Shown here: positions 5,162 through 30,760 of the stretch, one piece after another
Layout of the letters: every line of letters starts with the position of its first letter
How positions within the stretch are numbered: position 1 is the stretch's first letter
From: an uncultured Acidimicrobiaceae bacterium
GTDB lineage: Bacteria; Actinomycetota; Acidimicrobiia; Acidimicrobiales; Bog-793
NCBI GenBank assembly: GCA_963831155.1
Contig: CAWHOY010000006.1
Span: forward strand, 778,987-842,986
DNA length: 64,000 nucleotides
Direction: 5' to 3'
Position numbers and translations under genes: made by a program
The notes under the pieces: model-generated
What the model was told of the DNA's origin: nothing
The model's input: the letters and a program-made list of their open reading frames with translations, nothing else
The model's database searches: none

Positions 5162-5920
5162 CGCTCGCACCTGCTTCTTGCCGCGGCCGGGGATCCGGCG
5201 CGGCAGCATCGCGACGACGACTTTCGGGGCGTGTCCCTCGCGTACCCGCCCCAACACGCAGACGAGGTAGCTCGGCCGGAAACCCAGCGTCTCAACGAGC
5301 GCGCCTTTCGTGAGCGGACCGGGGGAGCAGCCGAGGGCGCGCCCGGCGAGCGGATCGATGATCGGGATCTCCTGGGTGATCCCCGACCACGAGACCGACG
5401 CCACGAGTGTCCCGTCGAGGCGGGCCTGCAGCGCCAGCTCGCGCGGCGAGGTCTCCACGATCGCGACCGACTGCTGTGACCCGTCGAGGTCGGTGTAGGC
5501 GATCGAGGGTCCCGAACTGGCGAGCAGCGTCGCCCCTCGGCGCTGCGGCGCGGCGAGTTCGCGTAGCAGCCTCCGCACAGGTCGGAGGCGGGGGCGTCCG
5601 ACGTAGGTCGGCATCTCAGCGATCCCGATCGCCTCGGGGCGAGCCGGGTCGATCGTCTCGTCGTCGTTCGCGATTGGCACCGTGACGACGTCGAAGCGCG
5701 TCACGCGCCGGTCTCCTTCGGCGCTTTGAACGCGGAGGAACCTCGATGCCTCGTCGGGGCGGGACCGCAGCACCGCGCCGGTCGTGCAGTCGACGCCGAC
5801 CCATTCGCTCGACCCGGCGAACAGAACGAGGCACGTCAGCCCGGATCCGGCGACGGCACGAGGCCGCACGCCCGGGTGGATCCTTCTCGGCAGGCGGACG
5901 TGCGCCCGCGGCTCTTTCAT
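5087..5920 (-). CDS. Conserved hypothetical protein, translationally coupled to the upstream thioredoxin-domain gene
   Basis: ATG at 5920-5918 overlaps the TGA (5919-5917) of the upstream gene as ATGA. Only the C-terminal 277 aa of track ORF 5087-6874 look protein-like. The 3' end overlaps the convergent gene by 75 nt. Confidence 0.5.
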   Translation of the reverse strand: MKEPRAHVRLPRRIHPGVRPRAVAGSGLTCLVLFAGSSEWVGVDCTTGAVLRSRPDEASRFLRVQSAEGDRRVTRFDVVTVPIANDDETIDPARPEAIGIAEMPTYVGRPRLRPVRRLLRELAAPQRRGATLLASSGPSIAYTDLDGSQQSVAIVETSPRELALQARLDGTLVASVSWSGITQEIPIIDPLAGRALGCSPGPLTKGALVETLGFRPSYLVCVLGRVREGHAPKVVVAMLPRRIPGRGKKQVRALLGEGTSGEVLGHRPAERDESVTT

Positions 5921-7917: not shown

Positions 7918-9053
7918 CCGCGTTGCCCAGCGAGGAGCTGGCGGACCGCGTCCCGCCGGACCTTTCCGATCGCGGTGCGCGGCAGGGCGTCAATGACGAC
8001 GACCTCGCGCGGTGCCGAGGCTGGGCCGAGAGTTTCAGCGACGTGCGCGCGCAGTTCGTCGAGACCCGGGGCTCGGTCTCCTTGTGCCTCGATGACCGCC
8101 ACGACACGTTCTTGCCACTCCGGATCGGCGACTCCCACGACCGCGACGTCACGCACGTTCTGGTGCTCGCGCAGGCGCTCTTCGACCGGCGTCGGCCACA
8201 CCATCTCGCCACCGGTGCGGATCACCTCCGCGATCCGGCCGAACACCTCGAGGCTGCCGTCTCCGCGCAGTCGGCCCGCGTCACCGGTCTTGAACCAGCC
8301 GTCGCGCTTCGGGTCGGATCCGTCGCGATAACAACGGAAGAGCATCGGGGCGCTGATCGCGATCTCGCCGCCGTCTTCGACGCGGAGCGAGACGTGATCG
8401 AGAGGCCATCCTTCATAGACGACGCCGCTTCCGGTCTCGGTCATGCCGTAGGTCGCTACGGCGTTCGCGGGTTTGTCCTTCGGGATCGCTCCGCCACCGA
8501 GAAGGATGGTGCGAAAACGCGCGGCGTCCGCTCCGAGACGCCGAGAAGCCGTTGGAACGAGCGATACCAGAGTCGCGCCGCGTCGCGCCGCGTCAATGAC
8601 GCGATCGGAGTCGAAAGAATCGTGGATCTCGAGCGGCGTCTTCGATGCGAGTGAGCGCGTGATCACGGAGAGCCCGCCGACGTGCGCGACCGGGAGGCAG
8701 CACAGCCAGCGGTCGTGGTCGGGATCGACACCGAGTCGCGTATTCGATGCCTCCGAGGAAGCCGCGATCGCGTCATGGGTAAGTACGACGCCGCGCGCCT
8801 CGCCGGTTGTCCCTGACGTCGCGATGACGAACGCATCGCCATCATCAACGGGATTCCCGCCGTCCAACGGCGTCTCGTTTCGTTCTTCGGCTACGACTGC
8901 GGCAGGTCGTAGCGTCTTCACGAGTCGGCGCTTCGCGCTTTCGGGCAGGCGCTGGTCGATCGGAAAGACGGCGTCGCCGCCGTCGTGTGCCCTGGTCATC
9001 GCCTCCACAAAGGGCGCGCCGCCGGGGAGATCAAGCGCGACCAGGCGATTCAC
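7914..9053 (-). CDS. menE: o-Succinylbenzoate-CoA ligase (short actinobacterial MenE type)
   Basis: Adenylate-forming motifs ATSGTTGEARGVVLTH, YGMTETGS and GWFKTGD. GTG 9053 is chosen because upstream ORF sequence is non-protein-like. ATGA overlap with the downstream gene. Lies in men gene context. Confidence 0.8.
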   Translation of the reverse strand: MNRLVALDLPGGAPFVEAMTRAHDGGDAVFPIDQRLPESAKRRLVKTLRPAAVVAEERNETPLDGGNPVDDGDAFVIATSGTTGEARGVVLTHDAIAASSEASNTRLGVDPDHDRWLCCLPVAHVGGLSVITRSLASKTPLEIHDSFDSDRVIDAARRGATLVSLVPTASRRLGADAARFRTILLGGGAIPKDKPANAVATYGMTETGSGVVYEGWPLDHVSLRVEDGGEIAISAPMLFRCYRDGSDPKRDGWFKTGDAGRLRGDGSLEVFGRIAEVIRTGGEMVWPTPVEERLREHQNVRDVAVVGVADPEWQERVVAVIEAQGDRAPGLDELRAHVAETLGPASAPREVVVIDALPRTAIGKVRRDAVRQLLAGQRG

Positions 9054-9074
9054 TACTACTAGCCTAACTGGGCG

Positions 9075-9926
9075 ATGAGTGCCTCTGACCTGGACCTTCC
9101 GGTGTGGAAACGCGAAGGCGACTATCGCGACATCATCTACGAACACGCCGAGGGGATCGCGAAGATCACGATCAATCGACCCGAGGTTCGCAACGCCTTC
9201 CGACCGCAGACGATCTTCGAGCTTTCCCACGCCTTTGACGTCGCGCGGGACGACTCCGAAATCGGCGTCGTCGTCCTGACGGGTCAAGGCACCGAGGCGT
9301 TCTGCTCCGGCGGTGACCAGCGCATCCGAGGTGACGACGGTTATCTCGGAGACGACGAGATCGCGCGTCGTGGCATCGGACGACTGAACGTGCTCGATCT
9401 GCAGATCCAGATACGGCGGCTGCCAAAGCCTGTCGTCGCGATGGTTGCCGGCTACACGATTGGAGGCGGTCACATCCTGCATCTCGTCTGTGACCTCACG
9501 ATCGCAGCGGACAACGCGCGCTTCGGCCAGAACGGGCCGCGGGTAGGCAGCTTCGACGGGGGATTCGGCGCAGGGTTACTCGCTCGCACGATCGGCACGA
9601 AACGGGCGAAGGAGATCTGGTTCCTCTGTCGCCGCTACGACACGCGGCGCGCCTACGAGATGGGACTGGTGAACATCGTCGTGCCACTCGACCGACTCGA
9701 GATCGAGACGGTGAACTGGTGCCGTGAGATGCTGCGTCTCTCGCCGACCGCGCTCAGATTGCTGAAGGCAGGCTTCAACGCCGCGGAGGATGGGCTCACC
9801 GGCATCCAGCAACTCGCCGGCGACGCGACGATGCTCTTCTACATGACCGAAGAGGCCCAGGAGGGCCGCGATGCATTCGTCGAGAAACGAGACCCAGACT
9901 TCAGTCGGTTTCCCCGGCGTCCGTGA
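9075..9926 (+). CDS. menB: 1,4-Dihydroxy-2-naphthoyl-CoA synthase
   Basis: 283 aa of the crotonase superfamily. [14 protein letters not shown]...GGDQ...GGGH pattern, typical MenB length and context. Confidence 0.93.
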
Positions 9927-10825
9927 GCGCGCAACGCGCGCCTGACCGCTCCTTCGACGTGGCGAGCACCTCGGACTGGATCTCCGCAGCGCGGCCGCGC
10001 ACTCTTCCGGTTTCGCTGTCGGCGGTCGCGGTCGGTGTCGGGGTCGCCCGCGCGACCGGCTATGTCGACTGGTGGCACGCGCTCTTGGCGCTCGTTGTCG
10101 CGTTCTCAATGCAGATCGGCACGAACTACGCGAACGACTATTCCGACGGCGTGCGCGGCACCGACACCCGGCGTGTCGGGCCACTGCGACTCGTCGCCTC
10201 GGGCCGGGCGAGTCCGGCGGCGATGAAGCGCGCCGCAATCGTCACCTACGCGCTCGGCGCGGTGTGCGGCCTCGTCCTTTCGATCGTCACCTCTCCGTGG
10301 CTCATCGCACTCGGCGCGGCGTCGATCGCCGCCGGCTGGCTGTACACGGGCGGCCCGCGCCCCTACGGCTACCTGGGGCTCGGGGAGGTGTTCGTCTTCT
10401 GCTTCTTCGGCCTGCTGGCGGTCGTCGGGACGACGTACGTCTCTTCGGGGACGATTCCCGGGTTGGCCTGGATCGCCGCTTCGGCCGTCGGGTTCATCGC
10501 CGTCGCACTGTTGGTGGTGAACAACCTGCGAGACCGGATTACTGACGAGGCGGCGGGGAAGCGCACCCTCGCGGTCAAGATCGGCGATCGAGCGACACGG
10601 CTTCTCTACGTGGCTCTCCTCGTCGGCGCATTCGGACTCGCGGGAGCGGCGACGGGATATCGAGGCTTTGCCGCGCTCGCTCTCGTTGCGGTGCCGATCG
10701 CTCTCCGCCCGGCGTCAATCGTCCTCGGCGGAGGAGAGGGCAAAGAACTGATTCCGGCGCTTGCGATGACCGGGCTCGTGCAACTGGTCTTTGGCGTCGC
10801 GTTGGCGATCGGGATCGCGATTTGA
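9923..10825 (+). CDS. menA: 1,4-Dihydroxy-2-naphthoate polyprenyltransferase
   Basis: 300 aa, multi-TM UbiA family. [14 protein letters not shown] motif. GTGA overlap with menB. Confidence 0.9.
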
Positions 10826-10839
10826 TGCGCGAACGGGAT

Positions 10840-11643
10840 TCAGTCGCCGTGTTCACGCATCCAGGCGTCGAGCAGGGAAAGGAAGGCGCGCGGGTTCTCG
10901 AACGGCGCAGCGTGTCCCGACGATTCGATGACCGCCGTCGTCGCGTTCTCGCCGATGACCCCCGCCAATTGATCTCCGAGCGCGCGGTACTTCGCGTCTC
11001 GCTCACCAGCGACGAGGAGGATCGGCATCGAGAGGTCGCTCAGCCGCTCGGCGGCGTGGCGCTGGGTTCCGGTTCCGAGATGGCGCAACGCCTGGGCGAG
11101 TCCGGCCGCCGAGTTCTCCTCGCGTGCTTCACGGCTCTGCGACGCCCCCGGCAGGTCCGCGAGAAGCGGTTGCGAAAGCCACTCGTCGAGGAATTCGCTG
11201 ATCGGAAGCGCCGCCCCCCCGATGCCCTGCAATCGGTCGGCGAGCGCCTCGTCGGCGCGCCGTCGATCGGCGCGATCGCGTTCGTCCGGGATGCCGGGCG
11301 AGGCGCCGACGAGCACCATCGATCGCACCGACTCGGGCGCCTGGAAGGCCGCGTGCAGGAGGATCCGGCCGCCCATCGAATATCCGACGTACGTCGCCTC
11401 GCCGACCGATTCGGCGAGCATGCGCCCGGCGACGTCGAGGTCTGCCGCCTCGATCGCCGCCGATCGACCGTGACCGGGAAGGTCGACGGTCACCACCTCG
11501 AAGCGCCCACTGAGGTCGTCGACGATCGTTCGCCACGACCTCCCGGTTTGGGTGAAGCCGTGCACGAGCGCGACGCGGGCACCCGATCCGAACCGCTCCG
11601 TGGCGAGCGGGCGCGACGAGTCGCCGAGTCGTTGATCGGACAC
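10840..11643 (-). CDS. menH: Alpha/beta hydrolase, probable SHCHC synthase
   Basis: HGF oxyanion motif and GYSMGG nucleophile elbow. Located between menA and menD. GTG 11643 is the only plausible start, and the upstream part of track ORF 10840-12069 is Arg-rich junk. Confidence 0.7.
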   Translation of the reverse strand: MSDQRLGDSSRPLATERFGSGARVALVHGFTQTGRSWRTIVDDLSGRFEVVTVDLPGHGRSAAIEAADLDVAGRMLAESVGEATYVGYSMGGRILLHAAFQAPESVRSMVLVGASPGIPDERDRADRRRADEALADRLQGIGGAALPISEFLDEWLSQPLLADLPGASQSREAREENSAAGLAQALRHLGTGTQRHAAERLSDLSMPILLVAGERDAKYRALGDQLAGVIGENATTAVIESSGHAAPFENPRAFLSLLDAWMREHGD

Positions 11644-11648
11644 GATTC

Positions 11649-13445
11649 GTGACCCTACAAGCGACGTTCGCGGTGACGCTTGTCGACGAGTGGGTGCGCG
11701 CTGGGGTTCGCGACGCGGTCGTGTCACCAGGGTCGCGTTCGGGCGTGCTCGCGACGGCACTCGCCGGCGACGGTCGGATCGAAACCCACGTCCGCGTCGA
11801 CGAACGCTCTTCGGGGTTCTTCGCGATCGGCATCGCGCTCGTTTCGGAGCGTCCCGTCGTCGTCGTGACGACGAGCGGCACGGCGGCAGCCGAATTGCAT
11901 GCCGCCGTGATCGAGGCCGATCTCGCTGGAGTGCCTCTTGTTGTCTGCACCGCCGACCGCCCTTTCGAGCTGCAGGACGTCGGCGCCCCGCAGACCGTCG
12001 ACCAACGGCACCTGTACGGGAGAGCTGTCCGCTTCTACGCCGATTTCGACGTGCCGAGCGAGGAGGCAAAGCCGCTCTGGCGGTCGCTTGCCGCCCGGCT
12101 CGTCCTCGAAGCAGAGCACTCGGTGAACGGGCCGGGCCCGGTGCACGCCAACCTGCCGTTCCGAGAGCCGCTCGGCGGCGAGCCGGAAGAGTTGCCGCCG
12201 GGACGTCCAGGCGCTCGCCCCTTCCACGAGGTCGTCGGCGCGTCGCCGCCCGCCGAGCGTGCCGTCGGCAACCTCGTCGGACTCGTCAATTCGACGAAGC
12301 GGGGAGTGATCATCTCCGGTCGCTCCGGAGCGGGCGCCGAGGCGGCGCTCGCCTTCTCGAGAGCGAGCGGCTGGCCGATCCTCGCCGACTCGCTCTCCTT
12401 TCCCCGCGAGACGAACGACGGACTCGTCGGCGCCTGGGAGACGATCGTGAAGTCCCCGCTCGCGACGACGGCGCTGCGGCCCGACGTCGTGCTGCGCGTC
12501 GGCGCGCCGCCGGCGTCCCGCCCGCTTGCGACCTGGCTCGCGAGGTGCGCCGAGGCCGGCACCCAACACGTGTTCGTCGACCCGTACGGCAAGTTCGCCG
12601 ATCCCGGTCGCACCTCGGCAACGGTGCTGCAGGCAGGACCCGAAGAGCTCTTGTTGGAAGCGGGGCGTCGCCTCGGTGGCGCCACCCCGACGCGGCCGCT
12701 GTTCGACGCGTGGACGGCCGCCGACCGGTCCGCGCAGCTCGCGATCGACGAGGTACTCGGCAATATTCCCGAGGCGAGCGAGCCCGCCGTCGCCCGCGAT
12801 CTCTTCGCGTTGATGCCCCACCGCTCGGCGATCTTTGTCTCGTCGTCGATGCCGATCCGCGACATCGACGGCTTTGCTCGGCCGCGCTCAGGTGCGCCGA
12901 TCGTCTACGCAAACCGGGGGGCGAACGGCATCGACGGCGTCGCGTCGACGGTGCGCGGCGTCGCCACCGCTCGTGTGGCGATGGCGCCGAAGGCGCCGCC
13001 GACCGTCGGCCTTCTCGGAGATCTCGCTTTCCTTCATGACCTCTCGGCGCACGTGCAGGGCGTCGATGAACAGCGCGTCGGGGTCACCTACGTTGTGATC
13101 GACAACAGGGGCGGAGGTATCTTCTCGTTCCTCCCGTACGCGCCCGAGCTGCGTCGTGACGTCTTTGAGCGTGCCTTCGCGACCCCGCAGTCGACCGACA
13201 TCGCCGCTGTGGCTACCGCGTTCGGATTCGGCGTCTTCGACCTCGACGAGCGTGCCGCGTTCACGCCGGCAGTGCTCGCGGCGATCTCGACAGGATCCGA
13301 CCAGCTCGTGCTCGTCCACACCGATCGCGCACGCAACGTCGAAATCCACGGAGAGCTCGACCGCGCCGTCGAGGCTTCGCTGGCGAGCCCGCTCGCCAGC
13401 CGCGGAGGAAAACCGAGATCTACGCGTCCTCGCCGGCCGCGCTGA
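11649..13445 (+). CDS. menD: SEPHCHC synthase (ThDP-dependent)
   Basis: 598 aa. N-terminus ATFAVTLVDEWVRAGVRDAVVSPGSRS and a ThDP-binding GDLAFLHD...N motif. men context. Confidence 0.9.
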   Translation: MTLQATFAVTLVDEWVRAGVRDAVVSPGSRSGVLATALAGDGRIETHVRVDERSSGFFAIGIALVSERPVVVVTTSGTAAAELHAAVIEADLAGVPLVVCTADRPFELQDVGAPQTVDQRHLYGRAVRFYADFDVPSEEAKPLWRSLAARLVLEAEHSVNGPGPVHANLPFREPLGGEPEELPPGRPGARPFHEVVGASPPAERAVGNLVGLVNSTKRGVIISGRSGAGAEAALAFSRASGWPILADSLSFPRETNDGLVGAWETIVKSPLATTALRPDVVLRVGAPPASRPLATWLARCAEAGTQHVFVDPYGKFADPGRTSATVLQAGPEELLLEAGRRLGGATPTRPLFDAWTAADRSAQLAIDEVLGNIPEASEPAVARDLFALMPHRSAIFVSSSMPIRDIDGFARPRSGAPIVYANRGANGIDGVASTVRGVATARVAMAPKAPPTVGLLGDLAFLHDLSAHVQGVDEQRVGVTYVVIDNRGGGIFSFLPYAPELRRDVFERAFATPQSTDIAAVATAFGFGVFDLDERAAFTPAVLAAISTGSDQLVLVHTDRARNVEIHGELDRAVEASLASPLASRGGKPRSTRPRRPR

Positions 13446-14305
13446 GTACGGCGTGCGCGCGTCGTGCCATCGGTTCGTCGATCATCGAACCGTCGATGCT
13501 GATGGCGCCCTGTCCTTTTTTCTCGGCCGCGCGATACGCGTCGACGACGCGCCGCGCATAGGCGACCTGTTCCGCGCTCGGAGTGAACGCTTCGTTCGCC
13601 AGTGGAACCTGGCGCGGGTGGATGCACATCTTGCCGGAGTACGACAGTCCGCGTGCGAGGGTGGCTTCTTCGCGGAAGCGATCGTCGTCTGAGTAGTCGG
13701 CGACGATGCCGTCGAGGGACTCGATACCCGCGACGGAAGCCGCGAGCGCGACTTTCGAGCACGGCGTAGAGGACTTCGAGACCCTTTCTGCTGCGCTCGC
13801 CACCGATGTCCGCGGCCAGGTCTTCGGCGCCGAAGTAGACCGCCGCGACCCGCGGGTGTGACGTGATGGCGCGGGCGTCGAGCACACCGCGGCCCGTCTC
13901 GATGCCGGCGACGACCAACAGGTGACCGAGCCCGAGGCTCGCGAGCAGGTCATCCGTCTCGTCGAGCTGTGACGCCTGCTCAACCTTCGGGAGCACGATC
14001 CCGGCGAGATCCGGAACGAGGCCACCCGCGAGGTCGTCGTGGAAGTGCACCGACGCCACCGAATTCACACGAACGAAGAGCGCGAACAAAGGAGCTTTGC
14101 TGGCAACCTTGGCCGATACCGAGCGCGCCTGTGCCCGAGCCTCGGCCTTTGCGGATTCGGCGACGGCGTCTTCCAAGTCGATGATGCCGAGATCGCAGCC
14201 GAGCTCGGGGAGCTTGGCTGCCCGATCGGGCGTCGTCGCCGGAGTGAAGAGCGCACTGCGCCATCGCCGGACGATCGGCGCACCCGTGCGCGCGTCGATC
14301 ATCAC
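13420..14305 (-). pseudogene. CitE-like HpcH/HpaI-family acyl-CoA lyase, interrupted by a 1-nt frameshift near nt 13758-13765
   Basis: The N-terminal 180 aa (...AAVYFGAEDLAADIGGERSRKGLEVLYA) are in the frame of ORF 13088-14305. The C-terminal 110 aa (SKVALAASVAGIESLDG...GKMCIHPRQV...) are in the frame of ORF 13420-14025. Together they reconstitute a full-length CitE-like protein. Confidence 0.75.
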
Positions 14306-14856
14306 GTCGCCGGTGTCGGCCGATTGCGGTCGGGCACGTGGCCGCGCTTGTAGATCATCGCCGTTCGCTTGAAGCTGATCACGACCTCGCCGCGTTGGTT
14401 GTACCCGGTCGTACGAACGGTGACGATGCCGGCTTCGGGGTGCGATGCCGACTCATGTGCCTCCAAGACCTCCGAACGCGAGTAGATCGTGTCGCCGTCG
14501 AAGACCGGATGCGGGAGCTTCACCTCGTCCCATCCGAGGTTCGCAACCACGTTCTGGGAGATGTCGGGAACGCTCTGTCCGGTCACCAGCGCCAGTGTGA
14601 AACACGAGTTCAGGAGGGGACGGCCGAACATGGTTTGCGCGGCGTAGTGCTTGTCGATGTGGATCGGTTGAGGATTCTGGGTGAGCAGCGAGAACCAGAC
14701 GTTGTCGGTCTCTGTGACCGTCCGCCCCGCCGCGTGCTCGAAGACGTCGCCCACCGCGAGGTCCTCGAAGAACGGACCGGCTGGCACTTCATGCAGCACC
14801 ACGTCGCCTCCCTGGATCGGAACCGGGTCGATCGTAGAAGGAGGCTCGGCGCGCAC
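14302..14856 (-). CDS. MaoC-like (R)-specific enoyl-CoA hydratase/dehydratase
   Basis: 184 aa hot-dog fold. NPQPIHID... motif. Stop overlaps the start of the CitE-like gene (GTGA). The MaoC + CitE pairing is as in mycobacterial Rv2499c/Rv2498c. Confidence 0.8.
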   Translation of the reverse strand: MRAEPPSTIDPVPIQGGDVVLHEVPAGPFFEDLAVGDVFEHAAGRTVTETDNVWFSLLTQNPQPIHIDKHYAAQTMFGRPLLNSCFTLALVTGQSVPDISQNVVANLGWDEVKLPHPVFDGDTIYSRSEVLEAHESASHPEAGIVTVRTTGYNQRGEVVISFKRTAMIYKRGHVPDRNRPTPAT

Positions 14857-14986
14857 GCTTCAAAAGGTGCTCGAGACGGGCACGCACGACGGGTGTCCGT
14901 ATCTCTGGAGGTGCACGAGCCGTGCAAGGAAGGTGCAGCGCAACCCATGGGGTCGTAGCCTTTCGGCGAACAGTTGGGGGTGACTG

Positions 14987-17900
14987 ATGCTCTGCTCAAG
15001 CTGCGGAGTGGAGAACGAACCGAGCGCGAAGTTCTGCTCGGAGTGCGGGAGTCCGCTGGCTCGCGCCTGCCCGAACTGCCACTCCGCGGTCCAGTCGACG
15101 GCGAAGTTCTGCAGCGAATGCGGGACGACGCTCGCCCAACCGGGACCGCCGATCGCCGCCGCAATCCCCCAAGCGACCGCCCCGATTCTCAGCGCGAGTT
15201 CGCCATCAGAACTGCGCCATGTCTCGGTGCTGTTCTGTGACCTCGTCGGATTCACTCCCCTTTCGGAGGCGAAGGACCCCGAGGACGTGCGGGAGCTGCT
15301 TTCCGGTTACTTCGACCTCGCGCGATCGATCGTCGGCCGAACCGGAGGCACCGTCGAGAAGTTCATCGGTGACGCCGTGATGGCGGTGTGGGGCGCGCCG
15401 GTCGCGAAAGAGGACGACGCCGAGCGCGCCGTGCGCGCCGGGCTCGAGCTCGTTTCGGCGGTCGCCGCCTACGGTGATGAGCATTCGGCGGACCTGAAGG
15501 CGAGGGTCGGCATCGTCACCGGTGGCGTCGCGACGACCGAAACTCCAGAAGAAGGCATGGTCATCGGCGACCGGGTGAACATGGCGGCGCGGATCCAGTC
15601 CGTGGCTCCTCCGGGGTGTTGCTACGTCGACGAAACAACGCGCGCCGCGACGGCCGCCGCAATCTCTTATGTGGACGCCGGTGAGCACGAACTGAAGGGG
15701 AAGGCAGAGCCCGTCCACCTCTTCCACGCGACGCGCGTCGCTGCCGCGCTCGCCGGCGTGCAGCGTTCGAGCGGCCTCGAGGCACCCTTTGTCGGCCGGG
15801 ACCACGAGCTGCGACTCGTTAAAGAGCACTTCCACGCCGCCGCCGATCGCCACTCGGCGCGGCTCGTCCTTGTCTCCGGGGTCGCCGGCGTCGGCAAGTC
15901 GCGCCTTGCGTGGGAGTTCTTCAAATATCTCGACGGCCTCGTCGAAGACACGCTGTGGCACGCCGGGCGCTGCCTTTCCTACGGCGAGGGAGTGAGCTAT
16001 TGGGCGCTGTCCGAAATGGTCCGCGCCCGGCTGCAGATCAGAGAAGAGGACCCACTGGACGTCGCCGCAGAGCGGTTGCGGGTCGGACTCGAGCGCTGGA
16101 TTCTCGATCCCGCAGATCGCGAGTTCATCGCGCCCCGCCTCGGCCAATTGCTCGGGCTATCGGCTCCCCAGCTACTCGCCAAGGAAGAGCTCTTCGCGGG
16201 CTGGCGACTGTTCTTCGAACGCCTCGCCGAGCACAGCACCGTCGTGATGCTCGTCGAGGACCTGCAGTGGGCCGACGCCGGTTTGGTCGATTTCTTGGAC
16301 CACCTCTTGGAGTGGTCGGGTGATCATGCGATCTTCCTGCTCGTCCTCACTCGACCTGAAGGGACCGAGAAACGCGGCCTCGGCCTCAGTCGCCGCAACG
16401 TCACCACCCTCTCACTTGACCCACTCGCCGACGAGGTGATTGGTGAGCTGCTCGACGGCCTCGTCTCCGGTCTTCCCTTGTCGGCACGCGCCAGCATTGT
16501 TGAACGCGCCGAAGGCATCCCGCTTTATGCCGTCGAAACCGTCCGGAGCCTTCTCGACAAAGGCGTGCTCGCCAAGGGACCTGACGAGGGTCTGCGCCTG
16601 GTAGGCGAGCTCGGCACGTTGGAGATCCCCCCCGGCTTGACGGCGCTCATCGCCTCGCGACTCGACGCCCTTTCGCTCGAAGAAAGGCGTCTTGTAAAGG
16701 AATGCTCAGTGCTCGGGTCATCCTTCCCGCGCCAGGCGATCGAGGCGGTCACCGACACTCAACCCGGCGAGCTCGACTCGTTGCTGACTTCGCTCGTACG
16801 GAAAGAGGTGCTCACCGTTCGGGCGGACAAGCTCTCCCCCGAACGCGGGCAGTACGCCTTCACGCAGTCGCTCATCCGGTCCGTCGCCTACGACACATTG
16901 ACGAAAGCCGAGCGGAAGGCCCGCCACCTCCGCACCGCCGAGCATCTTCGCAACGCCTTCCCGGACGAGGGCGCGGAAGTCGCGGAAGTGATCGCTGCCC
17001 ACCTCTACGACGCCTACAAGGTCGCCGGAGACGATCCGATTGCCGACGAACTGCGCGAAGACGCGAAACGTGCTTACGTGACCGCGGCTGAGCGGGCCGA
17101 GTCGATCGGTGCTCCCGAAGCCGCGGAGTCCGCCTTTGTCACAGCCGCCGAGCTGAGCACCGACGAAGCCGAACGGGCGGATCTCACCGAGAGCGCGGGG
17201 CGAATGGCGAGCCTCGCCGGCATCCACCAACGGGCGCGAGCCCACTTCGAGGCGGCGATCGCCGCGCACAGGGCTGCTGGGCGCGTCGTCGAGGCCGCCC
17301 GTGCGACTGCCGGGCTCGGCCGGACCGTCCAAATTCTCGGCCACGCCGAGCAGGCGATCGTCTTACTTCGCGAAGCGCTCGCTTCTCTTGACCCGGACTT
17401 ATCCCCGCCGGTCGTCGTCGCAGAGCTGCTGGAAATGCTCGGCAACGCCCTTGTCTTCGCTGGCCACCTGCGCGACGCAATTGAACCGATCGAGCGGGCT
17501 CTTACGATCTCCCAGCACTACGAACTCACCGAGACCTTCGCTCGTGCGCTCGGCGTCAAAGGCGTCTCCCTGACCTTTCTGGGACGCGTCGAGGAAGCCC
17601 GCATCAGTTTCGAAGCCACGATTGATGTCGCCCGTCGGCACGGCCTCACTGAGCCCGAAATGCGCGCCGAGCTCAACCTCGGCAATCTCTGCATGAGCTA
17701 CGACCTGCCGAGCGCTGCGGAACATTGTGAGGCGGTGCTCGTTGTCGCCCGTCGCTCGGGAGCCCGTCGTCACGAAGCCACCGCGGCCTCCAACCTGATG
17801 CACGTCCTCGCGCTGATCGGGCGATTCGAAGAGTCCTACCGGCTCGGGACAGAAGCACTGCAATCCGTTGGCCACGCTGTTGAAAGTTCGTGGATCCAGG

Positions 17901-18707: not shown

Positions 18708-19439
18708 TCAACCCGCGAAACGACGCGCGTCACGCGCTGCGTAGCGCGCGACGTCGTTGTCGGTGGACGATGCCTGCTCGATCAAACCGACGATCTCATC
18801 GAGCGAGTCAGCCGGGAACGCGCACGTCATCTCGTCGGGCGACATTCCTGTGCGAGCGCGGGACAATGCGCAGCCGACGCTCGCCGCCGGCACGCGCTGT
18901 TCCTTCGCAATCGCGACGATGTGGCACTGCGGCTTGCCGCCGATCGAAAGCGACGGGATGGCGTCGGAGATCACCATCATCTGGCGGCCGTTCACGCGGA
19001 TAAGCACGACGTCGGGCTGGACGTCTTCGGGGAAGTCCCTGAGCGGTCCGTAAGCGATGGCTTCTGGTCGCATCGAAACAGCGGGCAACCCCGCGATGTC
19101 GTCCTCGCCAACCCAGTGCGCGCCGAGGAGAGTGTTCACATCCTCGTTGTGCGCGACGTCCACCCAACTGGCGAGCCCGTGCGTCACACGACCGACGGAG
19201 CAGTTGCCGTGATCATCGGGCAACGTCGTGAAGACGCGGTCGGCTGCCTTCATCCAGAAGACACAGCCCGCTGGGACCCGTCCACGGCGTCCGTCCACCG
19301 CCGGCTCCGACATCGGTTCGTCGAAGGCCGGCACCGCGGCCGGCGTCGTCGCACAGAACGCGATCGCGATCGGCGGCGACTGCAGATGGAGCGCAGCGGC
19401 AAGCCGCCGTGAGGTCTCGGACCAGTGGGGACTCGCCAT
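18708..19439 (-). CDS. DUF169-family protein
   Basis: 243 aa. The pattern GCVFW...NCSVG...GCALSR is consistent with my memory of DUF169. Function unknown. Confidence 0.55.
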   Translation of the reverse strand: MASPHWSETSRRLAAALHLQSPPIAIAFCATTPAAVPAFDEPMSEPAVDGRRGRVPAGCVFWMKAADRVFTTLPDDHGNCSVGRVTHGLASWVDVAHNEDVNTLLGAHWVGEDDIAGLPAVSMRPEAIAYGPLRDFPEDVQPDVVLIRVNGRQMMVISDAIPSLSIGGKPQCHIVAIAKEQRVPAASVGCALSRARTGMSPDEMTCAFPADSLDEIVGLIEQASSTDNDVARYAARDARRFAG

Positions 19440-25216: not shown

Positions 25217-25390
25217 GTGAAAAAGGGACGTCATCGCCGCTTCGAAGAGGCACGCAGTCTGAAGCGCTCGATCGAGGTCGTCGTCGAGCCCTGTCCTGAG
25301 TGCGGTGCCGGTCCCGAGGACGACCACGCCAGCTGGTGCCTCTACGAACCCGAAGAACTCGAGGAAGACGAAGACAGCGAGCGGGCCTGA
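25217..25390 (+). CDS. 57-aa mini-protein with a basic N-terminus, a CPEC-x8-H-x3-C putative zinc knuckle and an acidic tail
   Basis: GTG 25217 is preceded by AGGAG at 25206-25210. Sequence VKKGRHRRFEEARSLKRSIEVVVEPCPECGAGPEDDHASWCLYEPEELEEDEDSERA. Third-position GC is lower than in neighbouring genes. Confidence 0.45.
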   Translation: MKKGRHRRFEEARSLKRSIEVVVEPCPECGAGPEDDHASWCLYEPEELEEDEDSERA

Positions 25391-26118
25391 TCGCGTCGCC
25401 GCACGACGGGATGGGGGAGGACGGCGCGTGCCCCCGAGCGCGTCTCCAAGTACTCGACGAGCATCCGATAGACGGTCGTCCCGATCATCTCTTTCAGCTC
25501 GTTCGCATTCGAGACGTAGACGGGTTCTTTGCCGACGAACGCCTCGGGCGCCTCGGTGCACCACCAGTGGAACTCCTCACCCGCCGGTCCCCAGTGGCGC
25601 CGGTCCCATTGGGTGACCGTCGAGGTGACGTGGCCGTCGTCTTCTTCGAAGTCCTCCCGTCGCAGCGGTAGCTGCCAGCAGACCTCGGGCTTCGTCGTGA
25701 GCGGCGTCACGCCGGCCTCGAGCGCCATGCGGTGCAGGGAACAGCCCGGTCCGCCGGGAAAGCCCGGCCGGTTCAAGAAGATGCACGCCCCGTCGACGAG
25801 GCGCGTCTTCCATTCACCTTGGTGCAGGCGATAGAAGCCGAGCTTCTTCGCCTTGTCGTAGTGCTGGAACTGTTCGGGCGTCAGCTTCGACGCCGCCTTT
25901 TCGACGCGTCGGAGATCGGCTTTGTCCGCCAGGTGTGCGCCGTAGCTGCAGCAGCCCTGGACGAGTTCGGGCGCCGGACCGGTGAGGACGCCCTGGCAGC
26001 CGGCGCCGTAGATGCACATCCATGGGCTCGTCAAGAACGTGAGGTCGAGCACCCACGTGCGCTCCTCGTCAGGATCCTCGAAGCTCACCCATTCGTGCGC
26101 GTCGTCGATTGCGGACAC
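25342..26118 (-). CDS. Cys-rich protein, putative zinc/iron-chelating (YkgJ/UPF0153-like CxxCxxCC-type) protein
   Basis: 258 aa from GTG 26118. Contains CIYGAGCQGV...GCCSYGA...GACIFL...GCSLH...CWQLP...WWC. Starts 11 nt after the radical-SAM stop on the same strand. The poly-Ser C-terminus is antisense to the acidic tail of the mini-protein gene. Confidence 0.6.
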   Translation of the reverse strand: MSAIDDAHEWVSFEDPDEERTWVLDLTFLTSPWMCIYGAGCQGVLTGPAPELVQGCCSYGAHLADKADLRRVEKAASKLTPEQFQHYDKAKKLGFYRLHQGEWKTRLVDGACIFLNRPGFPGGPGCSLHRMALEAGVTPLTTKPEVCWQLPLRREDFEEDDGHVTSTVTQWDRRHWGPAGEEFHWWCTEAPEAFVGKEPVYVSNANELKEMIGTTVYRMLVEYLETRSGARAVLPHPVVRRRDQARSLSSSSSSSSGS

Positions 26119-26129
26119 GGTGCGGAAAC

Positions 26130-27569
26130 CTACTGGCTGATCGAGCGCGCGGCGGACATCGCGACCGGCATGACCGCATCGATCTGCGCGCGGGTAGGTT
26201 CCGCGCAACAGAACCACGCCTCGGTGAGGTGTGGTCGCAGTTGTGCAGGGGGACCGAGCGGTTCTTGAGCGGCGGGGCGACCCCGATCGGGACGTCCGAG
26301 CACGGTGAATACCGTCGCGCGCACGGCGTCGTACGTTTCGGCTGCACTCGTTTCGAGTCCGCCCTTCTCCTCGATGATTGTGGCGAGCTCGTTCTGCAGT
26401 TCGTCGAGGGCCGGATCCGGCGACTTCCATCTGAAGCTCAGCGCGTCGGGGTCGAACGCGCCAAGAGCGGCGTGAAACGTCGCATCCTCGAGATCGAGGA
26501 GCAGCGACCCGGGCGGGATGAGGAGACGGATCGCATATTGCACCGCGTCGACGTTGTCGATGAGATCGTGGGTTGCGACGAAGTCCAAGATGTCGACGAC
26601 GTCGTCGCGCGTCGTCCACGGCGTGAACGGGAGGAACGAGGGCCGGATCTCCACACCGAGCGCGCGCAGCTCACGCACGGCGAACGCTGCGTCGTGCGCG
26701 TCATGCCCCTTGTCGAGTTTTTCAAGGATCGTGTCGCTCATCGATTCGAACGCGGAGACGACGAACGCCAGGCCGAGTTGCGCGAGCTCGGCAACCGCAT
26801 CGCGATGACGCAGAAGGTGTTCGACCTTGATCGTCGCGTCGAAACTTATTTGCGGGTGGCGCTCGTGCATTCCCTGCGCGACGCGGACAGCGTGCACTGG
26901 GCGGTTCAAGAAGTCGGGGTCGGCGAAGCGGATGTGCCCCGCGCCGAGGCCGACGAGCTCGTCGATGTCGGCGAGCACCGCGTCCTGATCGACGACGCGG
27001 GAGCGACCGCGGTACACGGCCGGCACCGGGCAGTGTCGGCAGCGGTGGTTGCAGCCCCTCGTCGACTCGACGGTTCCGACGAGGTGCTCGGCGTCGCCGG
27101 CGACGAAGCGCGCGTAGCGCTCGAGCGGAGAAAGGAGATCTCGCCCCGAGACCGATCCGCCCTGGCGTACGTTGCCGAGCTCGACGACCGTCGCGTCGCT
27201 TGAGCCTTCATCCCCGTCGAGCCAGGCGGTGATCGTTCCGAGCGCTTCACCCGCAACGAACAGGTCTCCCGGCTGCGCGACGCCCGAGATTCGCGCCGCG
27301 TCCGCATAGAGACCGAAGAAGCATGCCGGCACCTTTCGCCGTTGTCCGATCCGTGTGCGCGCCGCCAGCGCGAGGCGCAACGCTGTGTGCATCGGTACCG
27401 AGAAGCCGACGGCGTCTGGCCAGTCGAGATCGACGCCGTCGAATGACTCGATCGCGATGTCGGTCGTGCGCACCTCGTGACCTGCAGACCGCAGCGACCC
27501 GGCGATCGACGCGAGGCCGAGTGGCTGCGCGCCGAGCTCATAGGTCGAGACCAAAAGGACGCGGCTCAC
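26130..27569 (-). CDS. B12-binding-domain radical SAM protein with a C-terminal WFCCAEP motif (CUAEP/CCAEP-tail family, Cys form)
   Basis: 479 aa. N-terminal Rossmann-like B12-binding region. CNHRCRHC (CX3CX2C) cluster motif. CCAEP is encoded at nt 26196-26210 as TGT TGC GCG GAA CCT. GTGA overlap with the upstream ATP-grasp gene. Confidence 0.85.
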   Translation of the reverse strand: MSRVLLVSTYELGAQPLGLASIAGSLRSAGHEVRTTDIAIESFDGVDLDWPDAVGFSVPMHTALRLALAARTRIGQRRKVPACFFGLYADAARISGVAQPGDLFVAGEALGTITAWLDGDEGSSDATVVELGNVRQGGSVSGRDLLSPLERYARFVAGDAEHLVGTVESTRGCNHRCRHCPVPAVYRGRSRVVDQDAVLADIDELVGLGAGHIRFADPDFLNRPVHAVRVAQGMHERHPQISFDATIKVEHLLRHRDAVAELAQLGLAFVVSAFESMSDTILEKLDKGHDAHDAAFAVRELRALGVEIRPSFLPFTPWTTRDDVVDILDFVATHDLIDNVDAVQYAIRLLIPPGSLLLDLEDATFHAALGAFDPDALSFRWKSPDPALDELQNELATIIEEKGGLETSAAETYDAVRATVFTVLGRPDRGRPAAQEPLGPPAQLRPHLTEAWFCCAEPTRAQIDAVMPVAMSAARSISQ

Positions 27570-28828
27570 GCGTCGAGCTCTTTTGTGATGTGAAGCGACA
27601 GCTGTGCGTGACCGGCGCGCAGCGCCTTTTCCACGTCGTCGGGGTCGTCCGCCCGCGCGAAGAGGAAGCCGAGATAGCGGTCACCTTCCGGCCACGCCGC
27701 GATCGTCCGGCCGGTGGGAACAGTGATCTCGAGCTCGGTGACGTGCTCGACGGCGAGCGCCTCGTCTCGTCCGTCCACGCCTTCGAAACGCCCAGCGCTC
27801 GGGATCGGGATCATCATCACGCCGGAAGCGCCGGATTCCCGGGCGAATGGGACGTCGTCCATGCCGAGCGCGTGCGCCAGCACGAGCTCTTCGAGCGAGC
27901 GATCCGATACGAAGCGGAGCGCCTTCGAGCACTTGCCGCCGATCGTGCGCGCCGCGGCCTCGAGAACGATCACCTGCGCGTCCGGATCGGCACCCGACGG
28001 CGAGAGCCGCGCTTCGGCGTGCACGGGACCGTCGACGAGCCCGATCGCGCCGCAGGCGCGCTTGATCTCGTCTTCGACGCGCACCAAGACGCCCGGGTGA
28101 TGGCGCGACGGGGTGACGTAGATCGTCTCTTCGAAGTACGGACCGGTGAGGGGATCGGGCTTGTCGAAGATGGCGAGCGTCGAAAGCGCTCCATCGGTGA
28201 GCATGCCCTCGAGCGCGATCTCGTCGCCTCCGACGTAGCGCTCGACGAGCAGCGGCTCGTCCGGCGCACACCCGGCTGAGAGCGCGACCCGGCGCGTCCG
28301 CGCCGCAGCTCGGCGCGCACCGCCCGCGTCGTCGACGCGTTCGACGCCGCGGCTGGCAGAGAGCGAGACGGGCTTGATGACGACCGGGTAGCCGAGAAGA
28401 TCAGCCGCGTCGGCGACATCCACGTGCTCGTTCTCGCCCGCATCGATGATAGCGAACGGTGGCTGGCTGACGCCCGCTGTTGCGAGCAGTCGGCGCATCG
28501 TCACCTTGTCGCGCGTCGCCTCGATCGCCGAAAGAGGGTTCTTGTCGATCCCGAGTCGCTGCGCGGCGTACGCCGCCGCGAGCGCGCTCTCGTCGTCGAC
28601 GGCGACGACGGCGTCGATCGGCGTTGACTTCGCGAAGCGTTCGACGATTCGTGCCGCCGTGCCGGGTTCGTGCAGGGGGAGCGCGACGAAGCGCTCGGGA
28701 AACGACGCCGCCATCGCCTGAGCGGTGTCCGAGGCGGAAACGACGTCGACGCCGAGACGCGCCGCGGCGTCGAGGAACTCCTTTGCCCGGTATGTCTGTG
28801 AGGGCAGGAAGAGCATCACCCGGGGCAC
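27566..28828 (-). CDS. ATP-grasp domain protein (amino-acid-ligase-like)
   Basis: 420 aa. Pre-ATP-grasp region followed by GYPVVIKP...SRGV...VERYV.G.E motifs typical of ATP-grasp ligases. Confidence 0.85.
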   Translation of the reverse strand: MPRVMLFLPSQTYRAKEFLDAAARLGVDVVSASDTAQAMAASFPERFVALPLHEPGTAARIVERFAKSTPIDAVVAVDDESALAAAYAAQRLGIDKNPLSAIEATRDKVTMRRLLATAGVSQPPFAIIDAGENEHVDVADAADLLGYPVVIKPVSLSASRGVERVDDAGGARRAAARTRRVALSAGCAPDEPLLVERYVGGDEIALEGMLTDGALSTLAIFDKPDPLTGPYFEETIYVTPSRHHPGVLVRVEDEIKRACGAIGLVDGPVHAEARLSPSGADPDAQVIVLEAAARTIGGKCSKALRFVSDRSLEELVLAHALGMDDVPFARESGASGVMMIPIPSAGRFEGVDGRDEALAVEHVTELEITVPTGRTIAAWPEGDRYLGFLFARADDPDDVEKALRAGHAQLSLHITKELDA

Positions 28829-28901
28829 ACCTCATTGTGCCGGGAAATGGCCAGTTCGCCGTCGCTTCGGGTCGCGCGCCGGCTGGCCATACGATGGGCG
28901 T

Positions 28902-29543
28902 GTGGCTGATTCGGGTGACGGTTCTAGCGCGACTCCCCAGCTCAAGCTGACCGAGGCCGCCCGCCAGGCGGTCCTGGAAGCGCGCGCGGGTGAGGCGAGC
29001 GCGGAGAGCCTGGCGCTGTTTGTCGAGGTGACCGGCGCCCAGAACGGTACTTACACCTACGAGATGTGGTTCGAAGCCCTCTCCGACGCGACCTCACGCG
29101 ACGTCGTCAACGACTTCGACGGCCTCGCCGTGGTGGTCGGCGGGGACAGCGTCGACAAGCTCACCGGTGCCACCTTGGACGCCGGCGAGCACGGGCTCGT
29201 GATGTTGAACCCGAACACGCCACGCACCCCGGCGCCGACGTCACCGGCCCCCCAGGGCGACACGACGAGCCCGATGGCACGCTCGGTGATCGCCGTTCTC
29301 GAGGAGCAGGTGAACCCACAGATCGCGATGCACGGCGGCCGGGCGGATCTCGTCGCCGTCGACAACGGCATCGCTTACCTGCGGCTGTCCGGGGGATGCC
29401 AGGGATGTGGCCTCGCCGCGCTCACGCTTTCCCAGGGGATCCTGGTCGCGATCAAAGACGCGGTCCCCGAGATTGTCGACGTCGTCGACGTCACGGCGCA
29501 CGCCGAGGGTACGAACCCGTACTACGAACCGGCAAAGAAGTAA
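28902..29543 (+). CDS. Nfu/NifU-type Fe-S cluster carrier (HesB/IscA-like N-domain + NifU C-domain)
   Basis: The C-terminal part [36 protein letters not shown] carries the CxxC of the NifU C-domain. GTG 28902 is chosen because upstream ORF sequence is non-protein-like. Confidence 0.75.
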
Positions 29544-29553
29544 CGCGCCGGGC

Positions 29554-30760
29554 GTGCTCCGTTTCCTCACCGCCGGGGAATCGCATGGGAGGGCCCTCGT
29601 CGTCATCGTCGAAGGGCTCCCTGCCGGACTGCGCGTCTCCGCCGAAGCGATCTCGGACGAGCTATCCAGGCGCCGCCTCGGTTACGGCCGCGGACCGCGC
29701 ATGCGTTTCGAACGCGATGAGCTGACGCTCCTGGGCGGGGTGCGCCATGGGCGCACCCTCGGCTCGCCCGTCGCGATCGAGATCGCCAACACCGAGTGGC
29801 CGAAGTGGGAACAGGAGATGTCTCCGGCGCCGGGCGCGCCGACGCGCGAGCTCAGCGCACCGCGTCCCGGTCACGCGGATCTCGCCGGCATGTTGAAGTA
29901 CGGCTTTTCCGACGCCCGCGACGTCCTTGAGCGCGCCTCGGCGCGCGAGACGGCGGCGCGTGTCGCGGCAGGGGCACTGGCGAAGGTGCTCCTCGAAGAA
30001 GTCGGCGTCGCGGTTTTGAGCCACGTCGTCGCGATGGGCTCGGCGAGGGCCGCACCGGGGTCGCGGCCCGCTCCGGGAGATCTCGACGCGGTCGACGCTG
30101 TCCGAGGTGCGCTGTTTCGACGCCGCCGCCGAGCAGAAGATGATCGCCGAGATCAAAAAGGCGGCAAAGGCGGGCGACTCGCTCGGCGGCGTCGCCGAGG
30201 TGCTCGCTTACGGGGTGCCGGTCGGCCTGGGAAGCCACGTCCAATGGGACCGCAAACTCGACGGATTGCTCGCTCAGGCGGTCATGAGCATCCCGGCGGT
30301 GAAAGCGGTCGAGATCGGCGAGGCGTTCGCGATCGCCGAACGGCGCGGCTCGGAGTCGCACGACGCGATCGAGTGGGACGGCTCGACGAAGCGCTACTCG
30401 CGACCGACGTCGCGGGCGGGTGGGATCGAAGGCGGGATCTCGAACGGCTCGTTGATCGCCGTGCGCGCGGTCATGAAGCCGCTCTCGACGCTGTCGCGGC
30501 CGGTCATCGCGACGGTCGACACGAAGACGAAGGAATCGACGGTCTCTTTCAAGGAGCGCACCGATGTGACGTCGGTTCCGGCGATGGGCGTCGTCGCCGA
30601 GACGATGGTCGCGCTCGTTCTCGCCTCAGAGGCGCTCCGCAAGTTCGGCGGCGACTCGGTCGCCGAGTTCGTCCGCAATCACGCGAACTTCGAAGCCGCG
30701 ACGCACGAGACGCCGTCGGCGGCGCGGGAGCTCACCGTCGCGCCAGAGGTCGGGACGTGA
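29554..30760 (+). pseudogene. aroC: Chorismate synthase interrupted by a single extra nucleotide near nt 30100 (true pseudogene or sequence error)
   Basis: The N-terminal 182 aa ([16 protein letters not shown]...GDLDAVDA) are in one frame from GTG 29554. The C-terminal 219 aa ([31 protein letters not shown]...) are in the +1 frame, ending at 30760. Removing one nt from GAC GCT G TCC restores colinearity with M. tuberculosis AroC (DLPAIDASPVRAYD). Confidence 0.85.

Follow-up and report, generated by a model that had tools for sequence, protein, structure and literature searches.

A conserved module of an ATP-grasp ligase, a CCAEP-tail radical SAM protein and an NfuA-like protein, with ArsL as the nearest characterised relative of the radical SAM protein

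ArsL is a radical S-adenosylmethionine (SAM) enzyme that forms the C-As bond of the antibiotic arsinothricin. The enzyme cleaves SAM to methylthioadenosine (MTA) and a 3-amino-3-carboxypropyl radical, and the radical is added to As(III) that is held by three cysteines in the C-terminal tail, all three of which are needed. Deletion of the tail leaves SAM cleavage intact and abolishes product formation. ArsL has an N-terminal B12-like domain yet was reconstituted without cobalamin. To our knowledge, it is the only enzyme of canonical radical SAM fold known to make the 3-amino-3-carboxypropyl radical. The reference locus has the order arsQ-arsL-arsM-arsN1 beside arsRBCH, and the family (NCBIfam NF040542) is small, with only 147 sequences listed by NCBI. 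In bacilysin biosynthesis an L-amino-acid ligase (LAL) couples an unusual amino acid from neighbouring genes to a standard one, and the iron-sulfur (Fe-S) carrier NfuA rebuilds the auxiliary cluster consumed by LipA. In this study we analyze a 64,000-nucleotide (nt) stretch of DNA from an uncultured Acidimicrobiaceae bacterium (GenBank assembly GCA_963831155.1, contig CAWHOY010000006.1, positions 778,987 to 842,986), referred to as the window, in which an ATP-grasp ligase, a radical SAM protein with a Cys-Cys-Ala-Glu-Pro (CCAEP) tail and an NfuA-like protein are encoded side by side.

These three genes, with the NfuA-like gene divergent from the other two and a DUF169 gene often included, make up a module that is conserved across several bacterial phyla. 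The original prediction, made from the sequence of the window, had read a different set of three genes as one transcription unit: the ligase, the radical SAM gene and a gene for a Cys-rich protein, all on the minus strand. All three open reading frames (ORFs) are present where they had been placed. The ligase gene (27566-28828, 420 residues) is the first gene of a pair with the radical SAM gene (26130-27569, 479 residues), and the third gene (25342-26118) encodes 258 residues with 8 Cys from a GTG at 26118 and is contained in a longer mechanical ORF. The sequence also bears out the two junctions that had been described: GTGA at 27569-27566 is common to the ligase stop and the radical SAM start, and 11 nt separate the radical SAM stop (TAG) from the GTG at 26118. 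The GTGA overlap indicates that the ligase and the radical SAM protein are translationally coupled. A perfect 6-bp hairpin (GACGCG-TGAGC-CGCGTC, 27558-27574) spans this overlap and may affect the coupling. The ORFs are real genes and not chance ORFs of GC-rich DNA: the radical SAM protein matches its family at E 6e-146, the ligase has three Pfam domains, and homologues of the third protein number more than 7,600.

The radical SAM protein aligns with NCBIfam NF040546, the CUAEP/CCAEP-tail radical SAM (seleno)protein family, at 486.7 bits (E 6.4e-146) over model positions 1-467 of 468. The curated cut-off of this model is 500 bits, and homologues at 52-60% identity carry the NCBI name of the family; a 44%-identical relative scores 621 bits. 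The earlier assignment to this uncharacterised family is supported, at a score slightly below the cut-off. The second-best NCBIfam model is that of ArsL (NF040542, RCCLKC tail), which is matched at 242.7 bits over positions 1-413 of 423 and has a cut-off of 450 bits; a family member that passes the NF040546 cut-off scores 290.5 bits against it. The pairwise alignment with ArsL of a Pseudomonas amygdali plasmid extends over the whole length at 31% identity. The N-terminal ExGxQPL motif is conserved between the two proteins, the CX3CX2C motifs are aligned, and C454-C455 is aligned with the CC of the RCCLKC tail. The original prediction had not noticed this relation to ArsL, nor DUF169 as a frequent fourth partner. 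A sequence search of the PDB gave weak generic radical SAM matches only, and no ArsL structure was found there. NF040546 comprises thousands of sequence clusters and at least 582 genome matches. The literature on it amounts to a single sentence in Haft's preprint, which calls the family uncharacterised, and no function was found reported.

Translation confirmed both motifs named in the original prediction. CNHRCRHC (C173, C177, C180) is encoded at 27030-27053 and WFCCAEPT, residues 452-459, at 26193-26216, both on the minus strand, with P458 located 21 residues from the C-terminus. The Cys pair of the tail is encoded by TGT TGC, so this is the Cys form, as had been stated. The CX3CX2C motif is invariant in 66 aligned homologues and its three cysteines are predicted to be the ligands of the radical SAM [4Fe-4S] cluster. 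E450, W452, C454, C455, E457, P458, T459 and Q462 of the tail are invariant in the same alignment. C173, C177, C180, C454 and C455 are the only invariant cysteines in the family, so the protein itself offers no set of ligands that could hold an auxiliary cluster.

The architecture comprises an N-terminal Rossmann/B12-like domain, a radical SAM core (Pfam Radical_SAM, 57.4 bits) and a C-terminal tail. The AlphaFold2 model has a predicted local distance difference test score (pLDDT) of 92.3, falling to about 79 over the tail motif. The best Foldseek matches of the model are OxsB, AprD4, MgmA, TsrM and MiaB, and those to OxsB (E 6e-15, template modelling score (TM) 0.64) and AprD4 (TM 0.65) indicate a Rossmann-like N-domain joined to a radical SAM barrel. 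The B12-binding-like N-domain of the original prediction is thus upheld as a fold, but the match to the Pfam B12-binding family (PF02310) is 31.1 bits, just below the cut-off of 32.1, although many homologues bear a precomputed PF02310 label. AprD4 is named a radical SAM diol-dehydratase in NCBIfam and works without cobalamin. Because AprD4 is cobalamin-independent and ArsL was reconstituted without cobalamin, the fold is no proof of cobalamin use.

Eighty genome loci of the closest Cys-form relatives (46-89% identity) were compared. They derive from Acidimicrobiia, Thermoleophilia (Solirubrobacterales and Gaiellaceae), Chloroflexota and Egibacteraceae and are all metagenome-assembled genomes or metagenome contigs. 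Neighbours were scored by tblastn and by hidden Markov models (HMMs) built from clustered ORFs, with genes called by a heuristic based on GC content at third codon positions, and were counted over the 60 loci in which each flank measures 2.5 kb or more. The neighbour that recurs most constantly is Nfu, which lies no more than 3 kb from the radical SAM gene in 57 of the 60; the ATP-grasp gene is within that distance in 53 and the DUF169 gene in 27. The order with Nfu divergent from ATP-grasp and radical SAM genes on one strand occurs in 64 of the 80 loci. The genes that flank the module vary between lineages, so the module is not inherited synteny. It had been asked whether the genes travel together in related genomes: the ligase and the Nfu gene do travel with the radical SAM gene, and the Cys-rich gene, found in 13 of 71 loci, does not. 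No substitute ligase was found nearby in the loci without a ligase (L027, L066, L069 and L048). No transporter or regulator is conserved in the module, and neither is a resistance gene or a precursor peptide. A cluster for ribosomally synthesized and post-translationally modified peptides (RiPPs) was considered and rejected, as no small precursor ORF is conserved across the loci.

A divergent Cys-form variant in two further loci (L206, positions 5248-14720, and L207) keeps DUF169 and a CCAEP radical SAM protein, the 621-bit relative mentioned above, and has its other partners swapped. A circularly permuted ATP-grasp (PF14403), unrelated to the LAL-type ligase, takes the place of that ligase before the radical SAM gene, and in L206 a thioredoxin stands in place of Nfu. 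Further genes encode a VioC/clavaminate-synthase-like dioxygenase, a 242-residue protein, a MurF-like ligase and PhyH. YcaO-TfuA and a nitroreductase are encoded in the vicinity, and the whole looks like an amino-acid-derived natural-product cluster around the same radical SAM protein. No other single argument that ATP-dependent ligation is part of the pathway is as strong as this substitution of a non-orthologous ATP-grasp for the ligase. In seven Chloroflexota loci (L052, L053, L056, L057, L070, L075 and L078, at about 9400-16600) the same strand carries, after the module, lipB, lipA and the genes for pyruvate dehydrogenase (PDH) E1, E2 and E3. A link to lipoate was rejected, as these loci are near-identical and count as a single event.

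The position of the second tail cysteine, C455, is occupied by selenocysteine (Sec, U) in other lineages. A scan of metagenomes for W-F-C-TGA-A-E-P-T gave at least 120 stretches, and the Sec-form proteins among the matches listed are about 40% identical to the protein of the window. The consensus of 101 metagenomic forms among these matches is L-T-E-x-W-F-C-U-A-E-P-T-x-x-Q, and the Q at +10 past the UGA is found in 99 of the 101. As conservation extends past the UGA, the codon is taken to be read through. In Thermomicrobium roseum DSM 5159 (NC_011961.1, 8935-10440), a cultured aerobic thermophile, the annotated coding sequence of a Sec-form gene ends at the TGA and the frame beyond it reads AEPLEDPSG, so that the tail is either an unannotated selenocysteine or truncated. 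The gene adjoins those for a pyridoxal-phosphate-dependent aminotransferase and a major facilitator superfamily (MFS) transporter and has neither Nfu nor ligase nearby.

The Sec-form loci provide an independent test of the module, as the gene order in them is rearranged and the same kinds of partner recur. The ligase stays adjacent after the rearrangement, and one of the orders is radical SAM-Nfu-ATP-grasp on the same strand, with a short Nfu that is a single Nfu domain. YggX (Fe(II) trafficking and protection from oxidative damage, 127 bits) is encoded directly upstream of the radical SAM gene in at least 22 Sec-form loci, of which at least 8 also have a convergent ATP-grasp gene. A CDGSH iron-sulfur protein gene is divergent from the radical SAM gene in at least 7 loci, and DUF169 is found in several. 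Among the well-flanked Sec-form loci, 13 of 19 have Nfu or YggX. An Fmt-like formyltransferase gene (119.9 bits, under the cut-off of the fmt model) lies divergent beside the YggX and radical SAM genes in about 7 of the loci listed (including L090, L114, L118, L133, L153 and L200).

The ligase of the window has three Pfam domains above their thresholds, namely ATP-grasp_4 (81.0 bits, cut-off 27), LAL_C2 (48.7, cut-off 29.4) and ATPgrasp_N (46.6, cut-off 27), and phmmer aligned residues 19-401 with the L-amino acid ligase BL00235 (PDB 3VOT) at E 3.4e-31. BacD is the next solved relative, at about 1e-9. The assignment as a ligase is thus confirmed and can be narrowed to the LAL type, from which dipeptide formation is predicted. 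The protein reaches no NCBIfam equivalog, the best match being 98 bits to the PRK02186 subfamily, and matches on plasmids did not exceed 32% identity and included no characterised cluster. Searches of NCBIfam and Pfam, which had been suggested as a check, place neither the radical SAM protein nor the ligase in an equivalog with a known substrate.

The NfuA-like carrier is encoded at 28902-29543 on the plus strand (about 213 residues). An A-type-like N-domain free of Cys is combined with an Nfu domain (Pfam NifU, 68.3 bits), and the only two cysteines of the protein are in the CQGC of the latter. The protein matches TIGR03341 (NfuA) at 88.7 bits over positions 2-190 of 190 and is called NfuA-like since this is below the equivalog cut-off of 269. 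The earlier suggestion that Nfu is a plausible cluster donor can be taken beyond a generic donor, as Nfu is the neighbour seen most often and is inside the operon in Sec-form lineages. The start is most likely the GTG at 28902, leaving a 73-nt divergent spacer (28829-28901) to the start of the ligase gene. The hexamer TACGAT, 7 nt before this GTG, suggests a leaderless Nfu transcript. The spacer has no sigma-70 consensus, although scans for promoter and terminator consensus are uninformative in GC-rich DNA; Rfam and tRNA scans of the spacer and the window gave no matches and a riboswitch or other RNA element was rejected. The aroC gene (chorismate synthase, 29554-30757, plus strand) starts 10 nt past the Nfu stop and is split by one extra base at about 30100, with residues 1-182 and 183-401 in different frames. 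A 94%-identical aroC in L001 is in one frame, and the frameshift is either an assembly error or the mark of a pseudogene. With at least this one frameshift, small sequence errors elsewhere in the window are possible.

The reading that we favor, which we consider possible but short of probable, is that an ArsL-like radical SAM enzyme alkylates a soft atom bound to its tail and that the resulting amino acid is coupled by the ligase. The radical SAM core would reductively cleave SAM, probably at the C-gamma-S bond, to give MTA together with a radical, 3-amino-3-carboxypropyl, and the flexible Cys-Cys (or Cys-Sec) dyad at the C-terminus would carry the bound soft atom to the active site for alkylation. 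That the tail is chemically active is suggested by the occurrence of Sec at the second position in the metagenomic stretches and T. roseum and by conservation past the UGA. The soft atom would not be arsenic; a sulfur, Fe-S-derived or metal-bound species is most likely, given that Nfu, YggX, CDGSH and thioredoxin are the neighbours. The product would be an amino acid of the 2-amino-4-X-butanoate type, which the LAL-type ligase would couple, by way of an acyl-phosphate intermediate, to an amine or a further amino acid; alternatively, the ligase may make a dipeptide that serves as the substrate of the radical SAM enzyme. Nfu would supply or rebuild the Fe-S cluster, or deliver the tail-bound species, and would keep the tail reduced, and YggX, CDGSH or thioredoxin would take this role in other lineages. 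The variant contexts, with the VioC-like dioxygenase, the MurF-like ligase and PhyH in one case and the aminotransferase and MFS transporter of T. roseum in the other, seem to have an amino-acid or small-molecule flavor. In view of the lack of conserved genes for transport, regulation, resistance or a precursor peptide, the product is expected to be an intracellular metabolite or cofactor and not a secreted antibiotic.

Several points weigh against this reading. The mode of SAM cleavage is an extrapolation at 31% identity, as no member of NF040546 has been studied, and the protein of the window itself scores 13 bits under the cut-off of that family, though 244 bits over the next. There are two conserved thiols in the tail and three in ArsL, and no candidate for the tail-bound atom was identified. 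The ligase is absent near the radical SAM gene in about 12% of the Cys-form loci, and is missing in T. roseum and in many Sec-form loci; 6 of the 19 well-flanked Sec-form loci have no partner family nearby. Many Sec-form contigs are short, and little weight can be put on neighbours that are missing from them. The role of Nfu, YggX and CDGSH could simply be the upkeep of an oxygen-labile enzyme, and the Nfu of the window, 10 nt before aroC, may be a housekeeping gene.

The third minus-strand gene had been described as encoding a YkgJ-like protein, for which no support was found. Pfam and NCBIfam scans of the protein matched no family even at E up to 5, PF03692 included, while 120 of 120 homologues among the matches listed (62-86% identity, from a total of more than 7,600) bear the precomputed label PF11307 (DUF3109, now 'Rv0495c'). 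The discrepancy between the empty scan and the labels is noted, and membership of the DUF3109/Rv0495c family is accepted on homology. Loss of Rv0495c in Mycobacterium tuberculosis raises reactive oxygen species and the NAD+/NADH ratio and causes sensitivity to free iron (preprint 10.1101/2023.08.22.554105). In the window the gene is probably cotranscribed with the radical SAM gene. It is present in 13 of the 71 Cys-form loci with downstream sequence, directly downstream in 12 of them, and all 13 are close Acidimicrobiales relatives; it is found in none of the 120 Sec-form loci among the matches listed, and in L202 the family occurs without the radical SAM gene. These counts do not sustain the three-gene unit, and the Rv0495c-like gene is a lineage-specific local add-on and not a core part. 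A 57-residue ORF (VKKGRHRRFEEARSLK...CPECG...WCL; 25217-25390, plus strand, GGAG 9 nt upstream) runs convergently into the Rv0495c-like gene, with an overlap over the last 49 nt of that gene. At least 8 related loci have homologues of this ORF, in every case close to the Rv0495c-like gene, which the ORF accompanies rather than the radical SAM gene.

The DUF169 gene of the window (18708-19439, minus strand, 243 residues, Pfam DUF169 72.3 bits) is displaced 6.7 kb from the module, which it adjoins in other lineages, though it is not always adjacent to the radical SAM gene. The block in between is lineage-specific and contains the Rv0495c-like gene, a 116-residue ORF and the genes for RNase D, a flavin reductase, DUF885 and tyrS. 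C59, C80, C172, C190, H77 and H87 are invariant in the alignment of the DUF169 subfamily, and these four Cys and two His suggest a metal or Fe-S site. The AlphaFold2 model (pLDDT 91) has no fold counterpart in the PDB, with a best TM of 0.25, and thus offers no clue to function.

The main rival explanation, which we judge to be rather unlikely, is that the enzyme uses canonical 5'-deoxyadenosyl (5'-dA) chemistry with sulfur drawn from a sacrificial Fe-S cluster that Nfu replaces, as in the logic of LipA or MiaB with NfuA; the CC or CU tail would then be a persulfide carrier or a hydrogen-atom or electron relay. That Nfu is the most constant partner agrees with this, as does the restoration of the auxiliary cluster of LipA by NfuA. 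The fold and sequence of the radical SAM protein resemble MiaB and RimO as well as class-B enzymes, the thioredoxin that replaces Nfu in L206 fits a redox-cycling tail, and the module is directly upstream of lipB-lipA-PDH in one Chloroflexota clade, although this adjacency is confined to the seven near-identical loci. Against this, no conserved Cys except the tail pair is available to hold an auxiliary cluster, and ArsL, the nearest relative that has been characterised, works without 5'-dA chemistry. The relation to ArsL, with its aligned CC pair, might also point to biotransformation of a metalloid or soft metal (As, Sb, Se, Te or Hg), in which the toxic element would be alkylated by the enzyme while bound to the tail. 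Haft connects CU motifs to organometallic chemistry, and vicinal Cys pairs are generally known to bind soft metals in MerA, MerT and ArsD. Such a function is very unlikely here: there is no ars or mer context, with no ars genes in the window and only 3 weak matches to them in 200 related loci, the surroundings of the module are housekeeping genes (aro genes, tyrS and RNase D), and the third As-binding Cys is missing. An arsenic or metalloid system was rejected as the principal explanation given the absence of ars genes.

The pathway of the original prediction, in which the Cys-rich protein is a metal-chelating or maturation partner of the ligase and the radical SAM protein, is very unlikely and is largely refuted by the co-occurrence counts, the third gene being absent from 58 of the 71 Cys-form loci and from all 120 Sec-form loci listed. 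The 11-nt gap and the position directly downstream in 12 related loci, and also in L201 and L205, speak for it, and the effect of Rv0495c on redox balance and iron tolerance in M. tuberculosis fits an Fe-S/redox theme. The Rv0495c family is nonetheless far larger than the set of close relatives of the radical SAM protein and occurs without it, and in the same taxa the Rv0495c-like proteins are about 65% identical where the radical SAM proteins are about 50% identical, as expected of an independent housekeeping gene. It is also highly doubtful that the radical SAM protein modifies Nfu, another protein or a ribosomal peptide, with the ATP-grasp adding residues in the manner of RimK/LysX or a RiPP pathway. 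Nfu does lie between the radical SAM gene and the ligase in some operons and ATP-grasp enzymes are generally known to modify proteins and peptides, but this ligase has the LAL-specific ATPgrasp_N and LAL_C2 domains and is closest to ligases of free amino acids, the module has no conserved small ORF, and Nfu, replaced by the unrelated YggX, CDGSH and thioredoxin, is an unlikely substrate. Finally, the adjacency could be meaningless, unrelated genes having come together by chance among the housekeeping genes that surround them. This is barely credible, being already contradicted by the comparative data: the association holds across three phyla with differing flanks and gene orders and outlasts the non-orthologous replacement of two partners.

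The radical SAM gene of the window belongs, as an unremarkable Cys form, to a family that is already catalogued; the novelty lies in the system-level picture and the connection to ArsL. No description of a module of radical SAM protein, ligase and Nfu, often with DUF169 added, was found in the literature, in agreement with the earlier remark that no pathway of such composition had been described. A more specific proposal, to be regarded as a long shot taken as a whole, is that NF040546 is a second and much larger family of ArsL-type 3-amino-3-carboxypropyl-radical enzymes, that its tail presents a persulfide, an Fe-S sulfide brought by Nfu or some other soft atom, to which a C-X bond is made by radical chemistry, and that together with the ligase it makes an intracellular thiol or metal-binding dipeptide of a new kind. 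If this were true, the dipeptide would be a low-molecular-weight thiol or a cofactor of iron or Fe-S trafficking in Acidimicrobiia, Thermoleophilia and Chloroflexota. The rare chemistry of ArsL may then be widespread, as the sister family is large and has abundant Sec forms, and if the analogy holds a rare radical chemistry would be common in dominant soil bacteria and would make a new metabolite or cofactor. The ties to an amino-acid ligase and to Fe-S trafficking turn an orphan family into a defined, assayable two-enzyme system. Should the analogy fail, the tail, the Nfu link and the Sec/Cys switch would still mark an unexplored type of radical SAM reaction.

Among known systems, ArsL has the same three-part architecture, the CX3CX2C motif and a vicinal Cys pair near the C-terminus. 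The two differ in the tail, which is RCCLKC with three thiols in ArsL; in the family described here it is C[C/U]AEPT, carries two thiols and has a longer linker, and the position of the third Cys reads AEP. The score against the ArsL model is below its cut-off (242.7 versus 450 bits), Sec forms are known in the CUAEP/CCAEP family, and the partners are a ligase, Nfu and DUF169, unlike the ars operon of ArsL. If the analogy with ArsL holds, Dph2 of diphthamide synthesis would also share the 3-amino-3-carboxypropyl radical from SAM; it has a different fold without CX3CX2C, modifies a protein histidine and is not homologous. The LALs BL00235 (3VOT) and BacD/YwfE have the same ATPgrasp_N, ATP-grasp and LAL_C2 domain set as the ligase of the window, at low similarity (112 bits), and this ligase is without an antibiotic-cluster context of exporter and resistance genes. 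In NfuA with LipA and MiaB, a two-domain NfuA-like carrier is likewise genetically tied to a radical SAM enzyme. The Nfu adjacency of the module is conserved across phyla, unlike that of nfuA with lipA or miaB in E. coli, and the client LipA has an auxiliary cluster, for which the radical SAM protein of the module has no conserved ligands. Thioredoxin reductase (GCUG/SCCS) and MerA (C-terminal CC) likewise have a vicinal dyad at the C-terminus. Their fold and chemistry are unrelated to those of the radical SAM family, in which Cys and Sec interchange in the tail between lineages and a thioredoxin gene replaces Nfu in one variant.

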